64,000 nucleotides of DNA from a virus (taxonomy: Duplodnaviria > Caudoviricetes): IMG/VR virus record IMGVR_UViG_3300046167_000801. One strand, 5' to 3'. Shown here in pieces: positions 12,539 to 45,545 of this stretch. Within the stretch, counting starts at the first letter, position 1. Every line of letters begins with the position of its first letter. The translations under genes and the position numbers were made by a program. The notes beneath the pieces were generated by a model. That model saw nothing but the letters and a program-made list of their open reading frames with translations. It was not told where the DNA came from and did no database searches.

Positions 12539-13678
12539 ATGATTAGAGAAAACGTAATAGTTAGTGGTTCACTTGACGTGAGTGGACAATTTATCATACC
12601 AAGAGGTAGTAGAGGGGAAAGACCTACTTCACCTGAGATAGGTTCTATGTACTTAGAAGAATCTACAAGTGGTAGTTTCGTTGTTACATACACTGGTTCA
12701 TCTAATTATGATGATGGTTGGGAACCAGTGGGTTCGCAAGATACTGACAGAACAGGATTCAAATACAGACAAATAATAAACTATTCATATTTGGCAGGTG
12801 GATATAAGTCAGGTTCACCTTGGAAGAATGTACATAAAACAATTAACGCAACCGACCAAACATCTCACTTAGGTGAGTTATTAGATTACCCTGCAAACTA
12901 TACCTCAGGGGCGTGTAGTAAAACTAAATTATTTCTTTGGTCAACAAATACGGATGGTGCTCATAAAGGCGCAACTAACATACACTCAACACATACATCA
13001 GGTATTGATATGGTGAATGAAACAACATACACCCACCAATCTAAATGGGATTTATTAAATGCGAGAGATGATTGTGGTACCCTATTTAAAGAAACGGAGT
13101 TTGCGTATGTTTTTGGTGGATCTGTAGCAACAGTTGAGAAATTCAATTTAACAAATGAGACAATGTATACCACTTATTATCCTGGTGGTTCACCATATGT
13201 AACAACAACTTCATCTATTACAAGTACTTTAGGTTCATCAGGATTCTCTGATGAAAATTATGGTTACGGTTACGGTTCTGAAAGTGGAAACAAATGTCAC
13301 TTTGCTACTGATGTGTTCGAGACAAGGGCATCCTCATGGGCGTCTAGTGGACAACAGAAAGGGATTAGTTCTAAGGTTGGTAAAGGGTATTGTGGAAATG
13401 AAGGTACATATAATGGGGGTTATAATTTGAGAAGATGGGATGTCTTTACTGAAACCAATATAGGTAATGTACCTAAACCCCACCAAAATTGTGGTGAAGA
13501 AAACTTCACATTAGGACAAGACCATCAATACATGTTAGCAACATACGATGGTACAGGTCAAACAAATACAAGTTGGAAATTCTCATATACGACAGATACG
13601 GGTACGGTAAATCCTGCAGGGTTAGCACCAGGTGTTAACGCAGGTGCATCATCAGGACATTGTGGTTGGAGAAATTAA
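12539..13678 (+). CDS. Beta-propeller/kelch-like virion-associated protein, paralog 1
   Basis: YLAGGYK.SPWKNVHK, VEKFNLTNE, NCGEENF, C-terminal SSGHCGWRN. Directly follows the tail fibre. Confidence 0.6.
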   Translation: MIRENVIVSGSLDVSGQFIIPRGSRGERPTSPEIGSMYLEESTSGSFVVTYTGSSNYDDGWEPVGSQDTDRTGFKYRQIINYSYLAGGYKSGSPWKNVHKTINATDQTSHLGELLDYPANYTSGACSKTKLFLWSTNTDGAHKGATNIHSTHTSGIDMVNETTYTHQSKWDLLNARDDCGTLFKETEFAYVFGGSVATVEKFNLTNETMYTTYYPGGSPYVTTTSSITSTLGSSGFSDENYGYGYGSESGNKCHFATDVFETRASSWASSGQQKGISSKVGKGYCGNEGTYNGGYNLRRWDVFTETNIGNVPKPHQNCGEENFTLGQDHQYMLATYDGTGQTNTSWKFSYTTDTGTVNPAGLAPGVNAGASSGHCGWRN

Positions 13679-13690
13679 CTATTTATAGAT

Positions 13691-14809
13691 ATGATATTTG
13701 AAAATTTAGAAATTAGTGGGTCGTTAAGAGGTCAGGGAATAACAAGACCACCCTCAGGTGCAAAGGCGGATAGACCTTCCTCACCTGAAAAAGGATCTAT
13801 GTTCTTAGAAATGACGACATCGGGTAGTTTCGACAATAGTTTTCTAATGGTTTACACGGGTAATGGAAATGATTCTGGTTGGGAGAGAATTGCGAATCAA
13901 AGTAATTTTGGTAAAACCAGTTTTAGGTTCAATCAAATTATTAACTACTCTTATTTGGCGGGAGGGTATAAATCCTCATCACCTTGGAAGAATGTACATA
14001 AGACGGTAAACTCTACAGATCAAACATCACACTTGGGTGAATTGTTAGATTATCCTGCATCATATACTTCAGGTGCGTGTAGTAGAACTATTTTCTACGT
14101 ATGGTCTGTTAATAATGATGGTGCATGGAAGAGTGCGAGTAATGTACATGGTACATATACATCTGCGATTAATATGGTAACCGATACTAATTATACACAC
14201 ACCGCTGAGATGGATACTAATATAGCAAGAAGTGATTTAGGTACGATGCATAAGGAAACAGAAATGGCATATCTTTTTAGTGGGGGTAGTGCCACTGTTG
14301 AGTTATTTAATTTAACCACAGAATCCTTACATACGGCATATACACTATCAACAATAAACGGTAGTGATGGTGGTTCGGCATTTTCGGATGAACTATATGG
14401 TTATGGTTGGACTTCAAGTGGAGGTGTCAAATTAAACTTTTCAACGGAAACTTTTGCAACATCCCCTCATTGGTCAAACCATTCACAACAAAAAGGTATC
14501 TCATCTAAAGTTGGTAAAGGTTATGCCGGTAATGAAGGTTCATATAGTGGTGGTTATAACTTAAGGAGATGGAGTAATCAAACAGACACCAATATAGGTA
14601 ATGTTGTCAAACCCGATGGTAACTGTGGTGAAGAGAATTTTACTATGGGTCAAGATTGGCAATACATGTTAGGTAATTATAATGGTCTCCAAAACAATAA
14701 TTCATGGAAATTTACATACGCAACTGATACGGGTACAACAAGTGTAAGTGGGTTAAATCCCGCAGTAAACGCTGGTACTTCATCAGGTCATTGTGGTTGG
14801 AGAGAATAA
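13691..14809 (+). CDS. Beta-propeller/kelch-like virion-associated protein, paralog 2
   Basis: Same motif set as paralog 1, ends SSGHCGWRE. Confidence 0.6.
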   Translation: MIFENLEISGSLRGQGITRPPSGAKADRPSSPEKGSMFLEMTTSGSFDNSFLMVYTGNGNDSGWERIANQSNFGKTSFRFNQIINYSYLAGGYKSSSPWKNVHKTVNSTDQTSHLGELLDYPASYTSGACSRTIFYVWSVNNDGAWKSASNVHGTYTSAINMVTDTNYTHTAEMDTNIARSDLGTMHKETEMAYLFSGGSATVELFNLTTESLHTAYTLSTINGSDGGSAFSDELYGYGWTSSGGVKLNFSTETFATSPHWSNHSQQKGISSKVGKGYAGNEGSYSGGYNLRRWSNQTDTNIGNVVKPDGNCGEENFTMGQDWQYMLGNYNGLQNNNSWKFTYATDTGTTSVSGLNPAVNAGTSSGHCGWRE

Positions 14810-14821
14810 AATTTTAAGAAT

Positions 14822-15937
14822 ATGATATACGAAAATATGTCCGTTAGTGGTTCACTTAAAGTGGACAGAGTTACTGCAAGACCACCGAAAGGTGTTAAGT
14901 CACAGAGACCATCGAACCCATTATCTGGTTCTTTATTCTTGGAAGAATCATCAGAACACACAAGTTATTTAATGGTTTATACGGGTGTGTCTAATGTGGA
15001 TGAGGGTTGGGAAAGAATTTCAGCACAACAAAACGAAGGAACTAATTTTAAGTACAGACAAATAATTAATTATTCTTACATCGCCGGTGGATATAAATCC
15101 TCATCACCTTGGAAGAACGTACATAAGGCAACCAACGCAACTGATCAAACAACCCACATTGGTGAGTTATTGGACTATCCCGCAAACTACACATCAGGAG
15201 CGTGTAATCTTAGAATATTTTTTATGTGGTCTGTAAATACGGATAGTGCACATAAAGGACCAACGTCTCTACATAGTAACACAACTTCTGCGGTCAACAT
15301 GTTTACCGACACTAACTACGCCCACCAATCTAACCATGACTTACAATATAGTAGGTCCGATTGTGGAACCATGTGGAAAGAACATGAGTTTGCTTGGATT
15401 TTTGCGGGTAACAGAACAGAGGTAGATAAATTTAATTTAACTAATGAAACGACAATAACAAACTATGGGGTAACCTCGATAAGTAGTAGTGGTGGAGCGA
15501 GTTCTTTTTGTAATGAAACCCATGGATATGGATGGAGTACAAGTAGTATAAAAATGGAATTCTCTACGGAGACTATATCAAGTTCATCAAGTTCATGGTC
15601 AGCACACGGACAACAAAAAGGTATTCCATCTAAAGTTGGTAAGGGTTATGCCGGTAATGAGGGATCTTACCAAGGTGGTTACAATTTGAGAAGATGGGAT
15701 ACATCTACAGATACGAATATTGGTAATGTTGCAAAATTAAGATCGAATTGTGGGGAAGAGAATTTCGCTATGGGCCAAGATTGGCAATACATGTTAGGTT
15801 GTTACGGTAGTTCTTTACAGAATAACGATAGTTGGAAAATGTACTATCAAACAGATACGGGAGTTTTAAATCCCGCGGGTCTTCCACCGGCAGTAAACGC
15901 TGGTACTTCATCAGGTCATTGTGGTTGGAGAGAATAG
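14822..15937 (+). CDS. Beta-propeller/kelch-like virion-associated protein, paralog 3
   Basis: Same motif set, ends SSGHCGWRE. Confidence 0.6.
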   Translation: MIYENMSVSGSLKVDRVTARPPKGVKSQRPSNPLSGSLFLEESSEHTSYLMVYTGVSNVDEGWERISAQQNEGTNFKYRQIINYSYIAGGYKSSSPWKNVHKATNATDQTTHIGELLDYPANYTSGACNLRIFFMWSVNTDSAHKGPTSLHSNTTSAVNMFTDTNYAHQSNHDLQYSRSDCGTMWKEHEFAWIFAGNRTEVDKFNLTNETTITNYGVTSISSSGGASSFCNETHGYGWSTSSIKMEFSTETISSSSSSWSAHGQQKGIPSKVGKGYAGNEGSYQGGYNLRRWDTSTDTNIGNVAKLRSNCGEENFAMGQDWQYMLGCYGSSLQNNDSWKMYYQTDTGVLNPAGLPPAVNAGTSSGHCGWRE

Positions 15938-31986: not shown

Positions 31987-33009
31987 ATGAATAAGTTAGA
32001 TGCACAGTACCAAGGATTATTGGATGATATATTAAATTTCGGAGTAAAGAAGAATGATCGTACAGGGACAGGTACATTATCTGTGTTTGGTAGACAGATA
32101 AGACATAACATGAACGATGGTTTCCCTCTACTAACAACTAAAAAAATGGCGGTCAAATCCGTAATGACTGAATTAAAATGGTTTTTAAAAGGAGATACTA
32201 ATATCAAATACTTAGTGGACAATGGTTGTAAAATTTGGAATGGTGATGCATATAAAAATTACTTAAACATTTACAACTATAATTTTAAAGATGACGATAC
32301 TATTGAACCCCTCACTATAGAGGAGTTCATGGAGGATTTCAATGAAGATCAAGAATTTAGAGATCAATGGGGTGAGTTAGGTCCTATCTACGGAAAACAA
32401 TGGAGACATTGGTTTGGATATGATAGTAATGTTAACCCATATTATGTAGATCAAATCTCAAATTTAATTAATGAACTTAAAGTTAATCCTGATAGTAGAA
32501 GATTGATGGTGTCGGCATGGAATGTTGGAGAGTTAAGTCAAATGGTTTTACCTCCCTGTCATTATGGTTTCCAAGTGTATACCAGAGAATTAAATTTAGA
32601 TGAAAGAATTGACTACCACAATAGAGGTTCTATAAACAAATCTTCAGATTATTTTAGTGAACATATGGATGCGATGGGGGTACCAAATAGATCCATATCC
32701 TTATCTTGGAATCAGAGATCTGTTGATACGTTTTTAGGTTTACCATTCAACATAGCATCTTATGGGATGTTACTACATCTAATTGCTAAAGAAGTAAATA
32801 TGGTACCCGAAGACCTTATAGGTAATTTAGGTGACACCCACTTATATTTGAATCATGTGGAACAGGCGGAAGAACAATTAAGTAGAGAACCTAAACCCCA
32901 CCTACCAAAATTGAAATTACTTAGTTCCGATATTATGAACGGTGATTTTGACTATGAGTTATTACATTATCATTCACACCCACCAATAAAAGCACCACTA
33001 AGTAATTAA
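31987..33009 (+). CDS. thyA: Thymidylate synthase
   Basis: DRTGTGT, FPLLTTKK, ELKWFL.G, LGPIYGKQWR, LPPCH, QRSVD.FLGLPFNIASY, H.YLNH. Confidence 0.97.
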   Translation: MNKLDAQYQGLLDDILNFGVKKNDRTGTGTLSVFGRQIRHNMNDGFPLLTTKKMAVKSVMTELKWFLKGDTNIKYLVDNGCKIWNGDAYKNYLNIYNYNFKDDDTIEPLTIEEFMEDFNEDQEFRDQWGELGPIYGKQWRHWFGYDSNVNPYYVDQISNLINELKVNPDSRRLMVSAWNVGELSQMVLPPCHYGFQVYTRELNLDERIDYHNRGSINKSSDYFSEHMDAMGVPNRSISLSWNQRSVDTFLGLPFNIASYGMLLHLIAKEVNMVPEDLIGNLGDTHLYLNHVEQAEEQLSREPKPHLPKLKLLSSDIMNGDFDYELLHYHSHPPIKAPLSN

Positions 33010-33402
33010 ATGCAATTAATAACAACACACCCAATAAAGAAATCAGATTTAGGTTTTCACGCTAACTTGTTTGGTGGTAAACTACTAGCATGGTTAGACG
33101 CTGCTGGTGCTGCATATGCAATGGAGATATGTGACACACCAAGAATGGTTACTGTCATGATTGATAAATGTATATTCAAAAAACCAGCTAAGGAAGGACA
33201 ACTAATTAAGATTTATGGAAATGTAGTTCATGTTGGTAACACGTCAATTACGTTTTATTTAGAGGCGAGAGCCCATAATGTGTACTCAGGTAATCAAACG
33301 GTTATATTACAAACTAACATAAGATTTGTAAGGATAGATGAAAATGGGGACTCCGTTCCATTATCTGACAAAATCAAAAACAAATATGGAACAAAAGAAT
33401 AA
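33010..33402 (+). CDS. Acyl-CoA thioesterase (hotdog fold, YciA-like)
   Basis: LFGGKLLAWLDAAGA, VTV.ID...F.KP...G, VG.TSI, FVRIDENG. Confidence 0.88.
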   Translation: MQLITTHPIKKSDLGFHANLFGGKLLAWLDAAGAAYAMEICDTPRMVTVMIDKCIFKKPAKEGQLIKIYGNVVHVGNTSITFYLEARAHNVYSGNQTVILQTNIRFVRIDENGDSVPLSDKIKNKYGTKE

Positions 33403-33685
33403 TTATAATTTTCGTTTAGACATATTAAGAAGAAAGATTGATGTTTTGGATGATGCGTTGTATGGTTGTATTAAAAAAAGATTTAACGATACTAACCTCA
33501 TAGGTAAGTTAAAAAGAGAATACCACATTACGGATATGTGTGAGAAGCGTAAAGAAGAAATTTACGGAAGACTTGAAACTAAATGTAATGATGATGGTTT
33601 ACCACCACAATTACTTAAAGACATATACAACCTAATATTTGAGTACTCAATAAAAGACCAAAAAAGAATAATTGGTGAGAAGTAA
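33386..33685 (+). CDS. Chorismate mutase (AroQ / CM_2)
   Basis: LDILRRKIDVLDDAL...KKR....IGKLK...KRKEEI...GL....IY..IF..S..DQ. Start moved to the internal ATG. Confidence 0.78.
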   Translation: MEQKNNYNFRLDILRRKIDVLDDALYGCIKKRFNDTNLIGKLKREYHITDMCEKRKEEIYGRLETKCNDDGLPPQLLKDIYNLIFEYSIKDQKRIIGEK

Positions 33686-35659: not shown

Positions 35660-35989
35660 ATGGTAGACGTAACAGAAATAGCAATAGAAAAAATAGTGGG
35701 TCTAATGATGGATGAAGGTATAACCCCCGACACTCACAATCTCAGGGTTGGTGTAAGTGGTGGAGGTTGTAGTGGATTACAATACGAAATGGACTTTGAT
35801 GATAAAATAAATGAGGGTGATAGTGTCTTTGAAGTGGACGCAATAAAGGTGGTTGTTAATAAACCTTCACTACTTTATTTAGCGGGAACAGTGTTAGATT
35901 TCCAAGGTGGTTTAAACGGTAAAGGGTTTGAATGGATCAACCCAAACGCATCAAGAACCTGTGGATGTGGGGAAAGTTTTAGTTTGTAA
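35660..35989 (+). CDS. iscA: Fe-S cluster assembly A-type carrier (IscA/SufA/HesB)
   Basis: LRVGVSGGGCSGLQY, SLLYL.GT.LDF, NPNASRTCGCGESFS. Confidence 0.95.
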   Translation: MVDVTEIAIEKIVGLMMDEGITPDTHNLRVGVSGGGCSGLQYEMDFDDKINEGDSVFEVDAIKVVVNKPSLLYLAGTVLDFQGGLNGKGFEWINPNASRTCGCGESFSL

Positions 35990-37610: not shown

Positions 37611-37724
37611 TATTGGTTTCGGTTCTATTCAAATCTATTAGGGGATACAATTTAAATTGTGTCCCTTTTTTTTATTCTTGATATATTAAAAAAATATTCT
37701 TATATTAATAACAAAACATTAAGT

Positions 37725-38074: not shown

Positions 38075-38350
38075 ATGAGGATTGATTTTAAAAAGATACT
38101 TGAGGCATATAAAGTAAAAATTAGCCCAACCATAGAACAAAAAGATCTGGCACTAAAAAGATTAGAAATTTGTAAAGGATGTGAATTTCTTAAGGGTAGT
38201 GTTGAGGATAATTTTTGTAGTTGTGGTGTTTGTGGTTGTTTTATACATGGTAAGATATTTACTAATAAAGGGGATGAGTGTCCAAAAGGTAAATGGAGTG
38301 AAATAGACCGAGGACACTTTAAAACAAAAGTTAAAAACACATTAATATGA
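38075..38350 (+). CDS. Cys-rich Zn-binding protein (DUF6171-like)
   Basis: RLEICKGC...CGVCGC...K......CPKGKW. Its stop overlaps the next start. Confidence 0.7.
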   Translation: MRIDFKKILEAYKVKISPTIEQKDLALKRLEICKGCEFLKGSVEDNFCSCGVCGCFIHGKIFTNKGDECPKGKWSEIDRGHFKTKVKNTLI

Positions 38351-40395
38351 GAGCAGTTTTGGTAGGTAATGATTACCTTAAAGATAATAACGGTAATTTT
38401 AAACACTTAGAAAGTAACACTTCTGTTTTACCTTCATTTGCAAGATCCGAAGACTACTTCAACAAGTCTGTATTTGATCAGTTTCTTTTAGATAATAACA
38501 TAACAAGTATTGTCATTATAGACGCTTTAGGTCCTACCTTATTACAAGATGGGTTAGACAAACAACATGACGGTAATTCTTCCCATCAAAAGATTAGTCA
38601 TATGTTATCTAATGTATATGGTGAAACTCACAATGTTAGTTTTATCAGTCAAAATCAAGATGGATCTTTACCATTGATCGAGGATGCGGATGATAAACTA
38701 ATCTTAAGAATTGCATATGACGACAATGCTTTAGTTGATGAATCATACTGTAAAGATAATTTTGGGTTTCTAAAATTGATATCTGACAGTAATCCCAACT
38801 CATTACCTAATGTATTTTTTAATGATGGGAATGAGATTAGTGTAGATACCATAGGTACGACGATAACAGACAATGGTAACCACCCTAACTTTATTATTAA
38901 GGAAAGGTATCCTACGACCAACTATAAAAATTACCCTAAAGTATATAGAATTAATAGTGTTGAGGAATTAAACACACTTAAAAACGGATTAAATAGTAAT
39001 GAATTACTTCAGGAATATATTTGTAACACTAACGATTTAATTGACGGTAAATTAAAAACGTACAGACATATTACAATACTATACGGAAGTGACCTGTCAG
39101 TTTTAAATCCGTTCGACGTATTCTGTCATTCTAATAGGTTACCAATAACAGATGCTGTGGATTACGATGGTACAACAAATGAACTATCTCCATGGGAGAG
39201 ACCTAAGTACTTACAAAAAACAGGGTCAACGGCAGCTTCGAAACTTTATACTGGATCTGAAAACGATAATGTTAAAAAAAGTGATGGTTCGTTAGTTAAA
39301 CTAAAAGATCTTAAAGTAGGTGATAACCTCTCAAGTGTGATATTATCGGGATTAGGACCTGATGACGAATCCCATGTTAATTTTTCTTCGAATATAGATG
39401 ATTTAAATAGTAGCAATATAATATATTCACCCGTATTTGATGGCCCATTTGGGGGTATGTCTTATACCAAAGAAGAAGGTTATGATCCAACATATAATAA
39501 CCCAACTACATCTAACGAATGGGGTGGTTTTGCAAATACCAATACTGAATTGTCAAATGTTACCTTTCAAGAGGGTGGTAAATTAACATTTAATGCATCC
39601 TGTGAAGGGTCAATTGATGTTAAATTCATATTTGAGAATAACCCATATAATCATAACGGAAATGGTGATGATGATACGTTACCTAGATATAATACTGATT
39701 TAATTACAGTTAGTGGTGAGGGTGGTAAATATTCTATTGAGATCCCATCTCAAGGTTCAAACACTTTTAGTTCTTTTGTATTAAAAGTTATTACTCAGGA
39801 TTCAAATATTAAAATTACCAATTTTAAAATTATTACCTACGTAAGTGGACTCACCGATACTTCAGTTAGTACTGATAGTATTATTTCCGAAGAGTCGGGA
39901 TTTTTTGAACACATTATAACCTTAAGTGGGGGTAAAACATATAACTTTTTAGGTAGAAGTCAAATCCTATCATCAGGACCAAACGATGAGTTGTATCGAT
40001 TCATGATTGCGGATAATTTATTGGTTGGGTGTAAAGTAATAACAAGAGAATTGAGTGGGGGGAACCTTATTCCCGAAACGATAGTTTCTATGGGTTATAG
40101 GTACGTCCATGAAGTTGCATATAGTATAGATGTCGAAGAGGTAGATTACTATTTCAGAACAGATAGTTCTGAAACCCCTACACAAAGTGTTATTCATCAC
40201 AATAAAGAACAGATTGGGTGTATGTGTTATCATAAAGAATTTGAATGGACCAATTGTAGTTGCAATAGTCCATGTGTTTATGCCATGGGTGAATGTATGG
40301 AGGATGGTGCGTTCATAGATTGTTGTGGTTCACAACCAATGTGTTATGGAGGTTCATATTCATCGGGTCCTTGTGGTGATATAGGTAAAGAATAA
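38347..40395 (+). CDS. Circularly permuted ATP-grasp ligase fused to a Hint domain (with insert) and a C-terminal Cys-rich peptide
   Basis: G7-N-D9...E22-S-N24-T at the extreme N-terminus; IIKERYP and LLQEYI; Hint N-block V.K.DG....L.VGD; C-block AYSIDVEEVD.YF...VIHHN; then 63 aa with 10 Cys. Confidence 0.65.
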   Translation: MRAVLVGNDYLKDNNGNFKHLESNTSVLPSFARSEDYFNKSVFDQFLLDNNITSIVIIDALGPTLLQDGLDKQHDGNSSHQKISHMLSNVYGETHNVSFISQNQDGSLPLIEDADDKLILRIAYDDNALVDESYCKDNFGFLKLISDSNPNSLPNVFFNDGNEISVDTIGTTITDNGNHPNFIIKERYPTTNYKNYPKVYRINSVEELNTLKNGLNSNELLQEYICNTNDLIDGKLKTYRHITILYGSDLSVLNPFDVFCHSNRLPITDAVDYDGTTNELSPWERPKYLQKTGSTAASKLYTGSENDNVKKSDGSLVKLKDLKVGDNLSSVILSGLGPDDESHVNFSSNIDDLNSSNIIYSPVFDGPFGGMSYTKEEGYDPTYNNPTTSNEWGGFANTNTELSNVTFQEGGKLTFNASCEGSIDVKFIFENNPYNHNGNGDDDTLPRYNTDLITVSGEGGKYSIEIPSQGSNTFSSFVLKVITQDSNIKITNFKIITYVSGLTDTSVSTDSIISEESGFFEHIITLSGGKTYNFLGRSQILSSGPNDELYRFMIADNLLVGCKVITRELSGGNLIPETIVSMGYRYVHEVAYSIDVEEVDYYFRTDSSETPTQSVIHHNKEQIGCMCYHKEFEWTNCSCNSPCVYAMGECMEDGAFIDCCGSQPMCYGGSYSSGPCGDIGKE

Positions 40396-40413: not shown

Positions 40414-40557
40414 ATGTCAGAAGTAAATAAAAATACCCTTTATAACGATAAAAATCAAATTAGGCCAATTATTGATAAATCCTCTACGGAAGATAAAACA
40501 AGTATTGAGAACCTAACTAATAGTTTTGTTCAACTAATAAAGGACAAACACCTTTAG
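40414..40557 (+). CDS. Small protein (47 aa)
   Basis: Read by hand: MSEVNKNTLY...KDKHL. Follows the ATP-grasp gene. Confidence 0.5.
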   Translation: MSEVNKNTLYNDKNQIRPIIDKSSTEDKTSIENLTNSFVQLIKDKHL

Positions 40558-40847: not shown

Positions 40848-41047
40848 TGGTATTCATAAGTCAAACATACAAGAAGGCAATTAAAGTTATTGATAGTTGT
40901 GAAAATGAAGAACAACTAAAGGGGGCATCAAATTATGTGACCCTATTTAAGAATTACTTTGAAAAATTGGGATCTGACGACCAACTAATAGAAATTTATT
41001 ATTCAGAACTTAAAAATAAAATACTAACTAGATTAGATGAAAATTAA
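40847..41047 (+). CDS. Hypothetical protein
   Basis: Translationally coupled on both sides. Confidence 0.6.
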   Translation: MVFISQTYKKAIKVIDSCENEEQLKGASNYVTLFKNYFEKLGSDDQLIEIYYSELKNKILTRLDEN

Positions 41048-41579
41048 AAGTACTGACATAAAAGACTGTTACATAATAGAGTCTGATAAATATGTAGATA
41101 ATAGGGGACACTTCCAAGTACCCTTTAATGTCGGTGAATTTAACCAAAAGACGGGAATCACGTTTAAGTTCATCCAAGAGAACGAGTCATTTTCGGAAAA
41201 AAATGTTATTAGAGGATTACATTTTCAAAAACCCCCATTCGAACAATCTAAGTTGGTTAGGTGTATTTATGGTGGTGTAACTGATGTTATATTAGACATT
41301 AGAAAAGACTCCCCAACGTATGGGAGGGTGGTAAAGGTAGAGTTAAAAGGGGGTGATTTACAATCTGTTTTTGTACCTAAAGGTTGTGCACATGGGTTCT
41401 CCACACAATCAAGAGCGGTTTTTAATTATAAAGTTGACAATGTCTATTCTAAAGATAGTGAGGGTGGTGTGATATATAATGACCCCGAGTTAAATATAGA
41501 TTGGAATGTGGGTAAAAAACCTAAAATATCTGACAAGGATTTATTACTACCCTTTTTCAAAGATTTAGATATTTATTAG
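41037..41579 (+). CDS. rfbC: dTDP-4-dehydrorhamnose 3,5-epimerase
   Basis: DNRGHF, FIQENES.S.KNVIRGLHFQ, QSKLVRC..G, D.R..SPTYG, VPKGCAHGF, YKVDN.Y, ISDKD. Confidence 0.95.
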   Translation: MKIKSTDIKDCYIIESDKYVDNRGHFQVPFNVGEFNQKTGITFKFIQENESFSEKNVIRGLHFQKPPFEQSKLVRCIYGGVTDVILDIRKDSPTYGRVVKVELKGGDLQSVFVPKGCAHGFSTQSRAVFNYKVDNVYSKDSEGGVIYNDPELNIDWNVGKKPKISDKDLLLPFFKDLDIY

Positions 41580-45059: not shown

Positions 45060-45545
45060 ATGACATTATTTAATAATCTTAGATACAAAATATTCTGTGA
45101 TATGGATGGTGTTCTTGTCGATTTCGAGAAGGGTTACTTAGAACTCACAGGTTTAGATATATCAGGTCAGTGGCACACCACACCTGAATTTTGGAACCCC
45201 ATAAATGAAAAAGGTCAAGAGTTTTGGGACAATTTAGAATGGATGAAGGACGGTAAAAAATTATGGTCCTATATTGAAGAATACTATCCCGTACTATTGT
45301 CCTCCCCATCTCGTAACGGATACGGATCTAGAAAAGGTAAAAACTCTTGGGTTAATAGAGAGTTACCGGGAGTACCACTTCTATTGGAGTACTCAAACAA
45401 TAAAAAGAAGTATGCGGGTGAAGACTGTATATTAATTGATGATAGGGATTCTAATATAGAACAGTGGATATCTAATGGTGGTATAGGTATTTTACATAAA
45501 GATTTTGATACTACCGTAATTGAATTAGAAAAATTAGGATTATGA
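45060..45545 (+). CDS. HAD-family 5'(3')-nucleotidase-like protein
   Basis: IFCDMDGVLVDF, LSSP, ILIDDR..NI.QW...GG.GILH. Confidence 0.85.
   Translation: MTLFNNLRYKIFCDMDGVLVDFEKGYLELTGLDISGQWHTTPEFWNPINEKGQEFWDNLEWMKDGKKLWSYIEEYYPVLLSSPSRNGYGSRKGKNSWVNRELPGVPLLLEYSNNKKKYAGEDCILIDDRDSNIEQWISNGGIGILHKDFDTTVIELEKLGL

Follow-up and report, generated by a model that had tools for sequence, protein, structure and literature searches.

The 64,000-nucleotide (nt) window analyzed here, a stretch of caudoviricete DNA from IMG/VR (record IMGVR_UViG_3300046167_000801), carries a gene whose product, P0001, is an ATP-dependent amide ligase, a Hint domain, and a ten-cysteine peptide in one protein of an uncultured jumbo phage. 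The gene is an open plus-strand reading frame at 38347..40395 that encodes 682 amino acids (aa), and its probable role is to produce a small disulfide peptide and set it free. Our favored interpretation, held with slightly better than even confidence, is that P0001 is the large polypeptide of a three-gene module in which self-cleavage by the Hint domain frees a five-disulfide peptide from the ligase-Hint body. An earlier sequence-only reading of the window had proposed that the segments be checked by structure prediction, and this recovered both an ATP-grasp fold (residues 1-296) and a Hint fold (residues 302-619). The AlphaFold2 (AF2) model of the whole protein has a pLDDT of 77.5.

A word-indexed search found 109 relatives of P0001, all of them unnamed metagenomic proteins, and a profile search with the N-terminal domain returned 342 representative clusters at 50% identity, in all of which the domain starts at residue 1. 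Relatives occur on 307 viral contigs in IMG/VR; more than 300 share the layout of P0001, and none is annotated. The contigs that carry them reach 245 to 337 kb, which indicates that the hosts of this gene family are large phages. The ligase and the first Hint domain (Hint1) are fused in every member, with a linker of approximately 5 to 10 residues. Neither tblastn nor megablast gave a match among 50,697 deposited phage genomes, and the ligase-Hint-Cys peptide layout was not found in the literature searched (DUF6171; ATP-grasp with Hint and jumbo phage) or in family libraries. The architecture is real, widespread, and undescribed within the searched literature, while its parts are themselves known.

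Judged by its predicted fold, the N-terminal domain (38347..39234, plus strand, residues 1-296) is a minimal circularly permuted ATP-grasp carboxylate-amine ligase of the GspS/YgiC/eukaryotic glutathione synthetase (GS) structural class. Such a permutation had been proposed from motif order, and the motifs lie where they were placed: the Mg-binding motif G7-x-D9...D13..G16....L21-E22-x-N24-T25 spans residues 7-25, with IIK (residues 183-185, nt 38893-38901) and LLQEYI (residues 220-225, nt 39004-39021) following. The Mg triad D9/E22/N24 thus comes first, and K185, Q222-E223, and R240 come later. The AF2 model of the domain (pLDDT 87.4, pTM 0.83) was compared with known structures in an exhaustive VIA search, which matched YgiC (7uka) at Z 9.3 with a root mean square deviation (rmsd) of 4.1 Å over 204 aligned residues, followed by 3k1t (Z 8.6), 5oeu (Z 8.5), 3n6x (Z 8.0), and GspS/Gss 2io7 (Z 8.0), with eukaryotic GS at Z 8.1 to 8.5. 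The tool's own guidance rates such Z values as middling, but the match list is homogeneous, with ATP-grasp enzymes filling the top ∼40 VIA rows and the first 49 of 50 Foldseek rows. Significant Foldseek matches (E 1e-6 to 3e-3, the best 1.1e-6) were eukaryotic glutathione synthetases, Escherichia coli Gss, YgiC/YjfC, and two Methylobacillus permuted ATP-grasp entries, and rows 16 and 26 of the AFDB matches are clusters named circularly permuted ATP-grasp. The permuted enzymes (YgiC, 3k1t, 5oeu, 3n6x, and Gss) all cover model residues 1-290, whereas canonical ATP-grasps (TTLL, LysX/ArgX, RimK, bacterial GshB, PurK, Ddl, and MdnC) score Z 3.7 to 6.5 and align only from residue 48-54. The domain is therefore circularly permuted, its first two strands being the last of an ordinary ATP-grasp, and the earlier assignment holds.

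At the sequence level, the only matches to known ATP-grasps fall on the Mg triad D9/E22/N24. Across 39 to 41 divergent homologs, D9, E22, N24, T25, K185, E223, and R240 are invariant, and these residues together with R121 and D125 are unchanged across sequences only 32 to 47% identical; the putative ATP-binding Lys (K185) and adenine hinge, in which E223 is invariant and Q222 at least 90% conserved, are read from the sequence alignment. Because the Mg and ATP residues are invariant at such low identity, we take the ligase to be active. An hhalign comparison of the N-domain with a shallow YgiC/Gss profile covered the motif only and was not significant (probability 0.5, E 0.13), the profile being poor since its YgiC homologs are all at least 77% identical. 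It set YgiC residues 100-122 on residues 7-29, pairing D9/E22/N24 with the invariant D102/E115/N117 of YgiC, and its offset of 93 is that of the structural alignment (1-290 on YgiC 94-378). The comparison with E. coli Gss alone was not significant. The N-domain profile found among Protein Data Bank (PDB) sequences only biotin carboxylase (residues 285-310 on profile positions 9-34, E 2.5, EMN motif), and P0001 has no Pfam match to GSP_synth (PF03738), so that it is not a sequence member of that family.

The Hint domain follows as two parts on the plus strand, an N-terminal part with a block A-like DGS...GD (39250..39402, residues 302-352) and a C-terminal part with D595-V-E597..D600 and H618-N619 (39853..40203, residues 503-619; His-Asn at nt 40198-40203). 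In VIA, hedgehog 1at0 matched the model at Z 16.6 (rmsd 2.3 Å, 143/145 residues; model 302-621 on hedgehog 258-402), the Mtu RecA mini-intein matched at Z 16.4 (302-619 on intein 1-440), and approximately 45 intein and bacterial intein-like (BIL) entries scored Z 12 to 16.6. In these alignments Thr302 pairs with mini-intein residue 1 and hedgehog Cys258, and Asn619 with the terminal Asn of inteins. The start of the domain near 39250 with Thr at position 1, and its end at 40203, had both been predicted from the letters and agree with this alignment (T302 is nt 39250; N619 aligns with the intein terminal Asn). The Hint fold across 302-619 was likewise anticipated; the sandwich domain that interrupts it at 353-502 was missing from the parts then listed.

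Conservation within the Hint domain points to one half of the intein reaction. Across the family, position 302 is T14, H12, K6, N6, D1, S1, and the residue after the His-Asn (+1) is Tyr, Ala, Lys, or Pro (Lys620 in P0001), with Cys, Ser, or Thr in only 11/170. E597, D600, and N619 do not vary, and H618 is kept in at least 90% of the sequences; His-Asn ends Hint1 in 171/191 members, as tallied in the top 12 categories listed. A Hint domain with His-Asn but without nucleophiles at position 1 and +1, as the sequence-only reading described it, is therefore a family-wide feature. In block B, the (near-)invariant columns of residues 503-560 hold no conserved His, a statement about the sequence alignment rather than a residue-level superposition. 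The Hint domain appears, from these alignments, to retain the Asn-cyclization half-reaction only, with the N-terminal catalytic apparatus gone and the block B Thr..His missing. In established intein and BIL chemistry, Asn cyclization is the C-terminal step; it breaks the bond that follows Asn without requiring a +1 nucleophile, and BILs without such a nucleophile cleave for the most part (PMC4031507). Because position 1 holds no conserved nucleophile, His-Asn is near-invariant, and +1 is rarely Cys, Ser, or Thr, only C-terminal cleavage is plausible, and autocleavage after Asn619 is a reasonable expectation.

Downstream of the predicted scissile bond N619|K620 lies the payload (40204..40392, plus strand, residues 620-682), which has the properties previously read from the sequence: 63 aa, Lys first, and ten Cys; it ends in GKE. 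A Cys-rich segment follows the His-Asn in 150/253 full-length members, and payloads across the family are 20 to 95 aa long and rich in Trp, Tyr, and Gly. The number of Cys is even (6, 8, 10, 12...) in 146/152 distinct payloads (p 6e-36), and two of the six odd-numbered payloads are parsing misses. Full disulfide pairing therefore fits better than zinc sites. A look-up of the tail in the Atlas gave no match at 0.8 or above.

The tail is also the most diverged segment of the protein between close relatives. It is 62 to 76% identical to its nearest relatives, against 94 to 100% for the ligase and Hint domains, and in the comparison with P0002 the tail is 62% identical while other segments are 95 to 100%. 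Codon analysis gave a tail synonymous divergence (dS) of 0.57 versus 0.03 to 0.12 elsewhere (comparison with locus L016), and a ratio of nonsynonymous to synonymous divergence (dN/dS) of 0.47 to 0.92 versus 0.13 to 0.23 in the ligase. The expectation of a variable tail behind a conserved ligase and Hint domain was thus borne out, with dN, dS, and dN/dS all raised. The second divergent segment, a recombination hot spot, is a CBM29/CBM22-like beta-sandwich in a Hint loop (39403..39852, plus strand, residues 353-502), which interrupts the Hint fold after approximately 50 residues. Here dS reaches 0.8 to 0.96 versus 0.03 to 0.16 elsewhere (L012-L015), and pairwise comparison with near relatives showed the insert to be 68% identical in one other lineage. 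It is confined to the closest ∼25 relatives, and short homologs lack the segment. The tail and the insert, the only segments in which dN and dS are both raised, are cassettes swapped by recombination, under weaker or diversifying constraint.

By predicted structure the insert is a putative sugar-binding-like module with a beta-jelly-roll fold. CBM29 (1w8t) matched model residues 354-500 at Z 11.3 (rmsd 2.9 Å, 125/142 residues; Foldseek E 5.8e-5), and the structure search also found resemblance to CBM22, CBM11, and gingipain adhesin domains. A match to 1ohf p70 (E 0.015) inside the beta-sandwich was treated as noise. Residues 344-512 of P0001 are 30% identical (E 9e-14) to residues 118-299 of P0110, a 1,128-aa bacterial protein with FN3 and di-heme oxidoreductase domains, which hints at a cellular secreted protein as the source of the insert.

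In the favored mechanism, Asn619 would cyclize to a succinimide, as in step 3 of intein splicing and in BIL domains, and this would cut N619|K620 and free the 63-aa peptide. Its ten Cys would pair into five disulfides, and the peptide would act as a variable, conflict-type payload. The ligase-Hint body would remain a single chain, working with two small partners, of which one, a 47-aa product, is predicted to be a small subunit packed against the rear face of the ligase sheet. We suggest with low confidence that the ligase joins a carboxylate to a tail amine, either the alpha-amine exposed by cleavage or a near-C-terminal Lys.

Several observations weigh against peptide release by this route. 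Curated libraries are silent on P0001: Pfam at E up to 10 returned no ATP-grasp or Hint match, its sole match (CycT2, hmmscan) being judged spurious, and PHROGs and PDB sequence searches with the whole protein gave no usable match, so the case rests on homologs and structure. The tail itself is modeled with low confidence (pLDDT 24 to 62), and a few members end Hint1 in Ser-Asn, Asn-Asn, or Asp-Asn. A Lys lies within the last 4 residues of 91/122 tails (75%), only a modest enrichment over the 23/52 ordinary ORFs of the window (44%) that also have one, a control that weakens what had seemed a striking conserved signal. The 29 relatives in which a self-cleaving Peptidase_S74-type domain with an SD...K motif follows the Cys module count both ways (the domain is present in P0089, P0092, P0096, and P0102 and absent from P0001). 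The junction matches the natural C-terminus of the plain tails, in favor of a released payload; yet Peptidase_S74 typically marks trimeric fibers, and an attached structural tip fits these relatives as well as a released peptide does.

Two further groups of relatives bear on the payload. One to three extra canonical Hint domains, which start CFxAGT, end NGILVHN, and match Intein_splicing, PT-HINT (PF07591), and Hint in Pfam, occur in approximately 22 relatives. Some of them are 71% identical where their host ligases are 30% identical. The extra domains look horizontally exchanged; they may be selfish or mobile inserts, and this disparity led us to drop them as proof of a two-sided excision of the payload. 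The distant relative P0267 has a 36-aa, 8-Cys segment between its second and third canonical Hint domains and not after Hint1, which shows that such segments can occupy the gap between any two of the Hint units. Six relatives have only 5 to 7 residues after the His-Asn. Tail-poor or extra-Hint-only relatives keep intact ligase motifs, are complete genes inside contigs, and have a small ORF downstream, and a search of payload-less loci for a separately encoded Cys-rich peptide found none. Because payload-less relatives keep the ligase motifs, the core function does not need the Cys payload.

This last finding bears on an alternative that we consider possible but on balance unlikely, maturation in cis, in which the fused ligase modifies the tail of its own chain, whether ahead of release by the Hint domain or following it, in the manner of ribosomally synthesized and posttranslationally modified peptides (RiPPs). 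Three reactions are conceivable: capping of the amine at the new N-terminus, acylation of the C-terminal Lys, and head-to-tail closure of the peptide by way of an acyl-phosphate. In favor of such a role, the ligase and Hint1 are always fused across a short linker, and the best structural matches, YgiC and GspS, join peptide C-terminal carboxylates to amines, YgiC being named peptide--spermidine ligase in RefSeq. The near-terminal Lys of three-quarters of the tails is set in sequences of which Lys makes up only 2.9% of residues, and it is kept in short tails and in tails that end in a Hint domain. However, members without a Cys payload retain the ligase motifs, so the ligase need not exist to modify a Cys peptide; the Lys is frequent at the ends of ordinary ORFs of the same phage; the residue after the Lys and the +1 residue both vary; and graspetide-type ligases are poorer structural matches.

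A more elaborate form, somewhat more doubtful, would make P0001 an enzyme that carries its own substrate: the tail would serve as a scaffold whose amine is modified by the ATP-grasp domain and the 47-aa subunit before Hint release, perhaps with help from the 2-oxoglutarate (2OG) oxygenases, SET-domain protein, and kinase-like enzymes encoded near the genes of relatives. The product could be an N-acylated or backbone-cyclized five-disulfide peptide, and in payload-less relatives ending His-Asn-Lys it could even be a modified lysine. If true, the family would represent a new way to make processed peptides or small products.

The recombining insert and tail allow a different use of the same parts, for which we see little likelihood. 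In this case the Hint domain would stay uncut in vivo, or its cleavage would be regulated, and the insert and the Cys knob would remain attached as variable binding modules that direct the ligase to a glycan or protein of the host envelope for amidation. Two recombining modules resemble receptor-binding parts, the insert matches CBM29/22 and gingipain adhesin folds, genes for sugar-nucleotide enzymes and glycosyltransferases are found close by, both in the window and in relatives, and S74 in relatives points to an extracellular, fiber-like setting. Yet for a Hint domain without any cleavage activity, a near-invariant His-Asn is hard to explain; an enzyme that depends on ATP cannot function extracellularly, while paired Cys suggest an oxidizing compartment; and P0001 has no signal peptide.

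Release of a toxin, in which the freed disulfide peptide acts on bacteria or grazers at lysis, the ligase is functionally separate, and the DUF6171-like protein encoded next to P0001 is an immunity or folding partner, strikes us as less probable again. A Hint domain before a hypervariable C-terminal module follows PT-HINT logic, and the extra Hint domains of relatives match PF07591; the tail is exchanged like a cassette, the peptides are small, Trp/Tyr/Gly-rich, and even in Cys, and the partner gene is linked in 77/80 loci. Against this, neither Pfam on P0001 nor the Atlas look-up of the tail found a toxin family, no secretion or trafficking domain is present, the partner gene is conserved at 35 to 43% identity with no immunity-like covariation, and the obligatory ligase fusion is left unexplained. 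Finally, a virion structural protein, with a dead N-domain as anchor and Hint and S74 as maturation modules of a fiber or decoration protein, would account for the conserved N-terminus, the variable C-terminus, S74 in relatives, and the tail and fiber proteins among BFVD matches (via the beta-sandwich and Hint parts), but is very improbable given that D9, E22, N24, K185, E223, and R240 are invariant at 30 to 45% identity, that P0001 has no PHROG structural match, and that the gene lies outside the fiber block (2 to 16 kb) among nucleotide-metabolism and modification genes.

Release of a disulfide peptide from a ligase-Hint body is our preferred account, and its two small partners are encoded on either side of P0001. 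The sequence-only reading had presented a one-gene system; this part did not stand, as the flanking genes make a conserved three-gene module. Upstream, a DUF6171-like 91-aa protein with six conserved Cys (CxxC...CxxCxC...CP) is encoded at 38075..38350 (plus strand), its stop overlapping the ligase start (ATGA); it matches Pfam DUF6171 at E 1.2e-4, below the cut-off, and phrog_13558 at 7.9e-9. Neighbor genes were counted in 80 IMG/VR loci, and 6 loci were checked by hand. The DUF6171-like gene lies no more than 4 kb away on the same strand in 77 of the 80 and adjoins the ligase gene, before or after it, in all 6 hand-checked loci. Downstream, a 47-aa protein (MSEVNKN...IKDKHL; 40414..40557, plus strand) is the predicted small subunit of the ligase by its conserved position and by complex prediction. 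By hidden Markov model (HMM), an ORF of 25 to 49 aa occurs 2 to 48 nt downstream of the ligase gene in 47/80 loci, and positionally equivalent divergent ORFs occur in almost all others (46 non-HMM loci viewed, of which L068 listed none).

Prediction of a three-chain complex gave the 47-mer, which complex scoring covered alone, an ipSAE of 0.78 against 0.41 for the best control, with partner pLDDT of at least 63 and runs agreeing in at least 63% of contacts; the ipSAE mark is reached by 58/80 solved complexes and 2/110 mismatched pairs. The predicted contacts involve residues 8, 10, 12, 17-18, 20, 23, 129-152, and 232-290, and Hint residues 520-586, on the sheet face opposite D9/E22/N24 in the model. 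The 47-mer therefore looks, in this model, like a small structural subunit on the back face of the ligase and not a substrate, and perhaps it stands in for the N-terminal region present in YgiC. A strong terminator-like hairpin of 12 pairs followed by a T-run lies at 37640-37667 (plus strand), after a 525-aa gene, and the DUF6171-like, ligase, and 47-mer genes probably start a new transcription unit.

The window has a GC content of 32 to 39% and encodes a thymidylate synthase, an N6/N4 methylase, glycosyltransferases, a radical S-adenosylmethionine (SAM) enzyme, and a 3,443-aa ORF; the ligase gene is set among the genes of nucleotide metabolism and modification, apart from the fiber block. The genes whose positions follow are on the plus strand. 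Three ∼370-aa paralogs follow the 3,443-aa ORF (12539-15937); all end SGHCGWR(N/E), and the first matches phrog_1417. Directly after the thymidylate synthase gene (31987-33009), genes for a 4HBT thioesterase (PF03061, E 3.9e-17) and a type II chorismate mutase (PF01817, E 4.6e-12) overlap at 33010-33685, an unusual metabolic trio for a phage. A 109-aa HesB/IscA-type Fe-S carrier (35660-35989; PF01521, E 1.3e-14) lies ∼2.4 kb upstream of the DUF6171-like gene, in the same phage as radical SAM genes. Downstream of the cassette are a dTDP-4-dehydrorhamnose 3,5-epimerase (41037-41579; PF00908, E 9e-58) and a 5′-3′ deoxyribonucleotidase (45060-45545; phrog_2643). In relatives (L094:851-6030 and the flanks of L007, L008, and L009), the cassette sits in a recurring block with an APS-kinase/Zeta-like P-loop protein, a ∼120- to 125-aa protein, DUF2061, up to three 2OG-Fe(II) oxygenases (PF13640), PhyH, a SET-domain protein, and radical SAM. 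The gene content of this block suggests a cluster of enzymes that modify proteins or peptides; in the window, most of these genes are missing beside the ligase gene.

If cleavage occurs, the family would represent a widespread phage route to small disulfide-rich peptides that needs no separate protease, and the ligase-Hint pair could be a new enzyme-plus-substrate design for peptide modification. The payload and insert are swapped between lineages like host-range modules, which suggests a role in phage-host or phage-competitor conflict. Further, Hint domains that appear to keep the Asn-cyclization half only, in hundreds of natural variants, would form a ready-made set of C-terminal self-cleaving tags, and the permuted ATP-grasp, which is among the smallest of its class and seems to borrow a 47-residue subunit in trans, bears on how GspS- and GS-type ligases are built.

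Among known systems, the ligase is closest to the GspS family (Gss 2io7; YgiC/YjfC 7uka and 7uk6; trypanothione synthetase), which has the same permuted topology, with the D...ExN strands before the ATP-binding Lys and a QE hinge, and matches the phage domain from residue 1 at Z 8.0 to 9.3. YgiC has ∼93 residues before the motif that the phage protein lacks, and its invariant R100, two residues before the Asp, corresponds to Gly7; unlike these enzymes, the phage ligase has a Hint domain fused to it and seems to depend on a 47-aa subunit encoded separately. Eukaryotic GS (1m0w, 2hgs, and 5oeu) and the fungal E-64 ligase Cp1B (9cjn) share the permuted order and are the best Foldseek matches (E 1e-6 to 1e-4), but with TM-scores of only 0.27 to 0.44, 10 to 14% identity, and 450 to 480 residues against 296 in the phage domain. 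Cp1B is an amide-bond-forming ATP-grasp ligase (PMC12568646). Bacterial CP_ATPgrasp_1/2 and 3n6x have the same fold class and permutation (3n6x, Z 8.0), and the phage protein has no Pfam match to them. Their usual partners, reportedly alpha-E and transglutaminase as described by Iyer and colleagues in 2009, are absent from the loci seen here. Graspetide/microviridin systems likewise tie an ATP-grasp genetically to a ribosomal peptide. The graspetide-like logic suggested earlier finds no support, since the ligases MdnC (5ig9, Z 3.7) and 7mgv (Z 4.7) align only from residue ∼52-54 and belong to a different ATP-grasp clade, whereas the GspS/YgiC/GS class aligns from residue 1. No leader-core precursor gene was seen at the loci viewed, and the phage peptide is instead fused to the enzyme through a Hint domain.

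The C-terminal half of the protein has different counterparts. The Peptidase_S74 chaperone, known from endosialidase and tail-fiber C-termini, follows the Cys module in the 29 relatives noted above, whereas P0001 stops 2 residues after the Lys, where those proteins continue. PT-HINT (PF07591) is likewise an autoproteolytic Hint domain directly before a hypervariable, exchangeable C-terminal module, but Hint1 has no PF07591 match, there is no trafficking domain and no recognizable toxin or immunity gene, and the payload is a 20- to 95-aa disulfide peptide. Inteins differ in having nucleophiles at position 1 and +1, where the phage Hint domain has an unconserved Thr302 and Lys620. A-type BILs (Clostridium thermocellum BIL 2lwy; Tetrahymena BUBL BIL2 6y75 and 6tmm) have the same Hint fold (Z 15.4 to 16.1) and, as in the phage Hint domain, a C-terminal His-Asn without a +1 nucleophile, for which cleavage over splicing is expected (PMC4031507). 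BILs begin with Cys and form an N-terminal thioester, from which BIL2 makes a Lys isopeptide without ATP (PMC8616854), whereas Thr, His, Lys, or Asn at position 1 would leave the phage domain the Asn step only. On these alignments the phage Hint domain would work like the C-terminal half-reaction of a BIL without being a typical A-type member, and it differs further in carrying a CBM-like domain inserted within it and an ATP-dependent ligase fused upstream.

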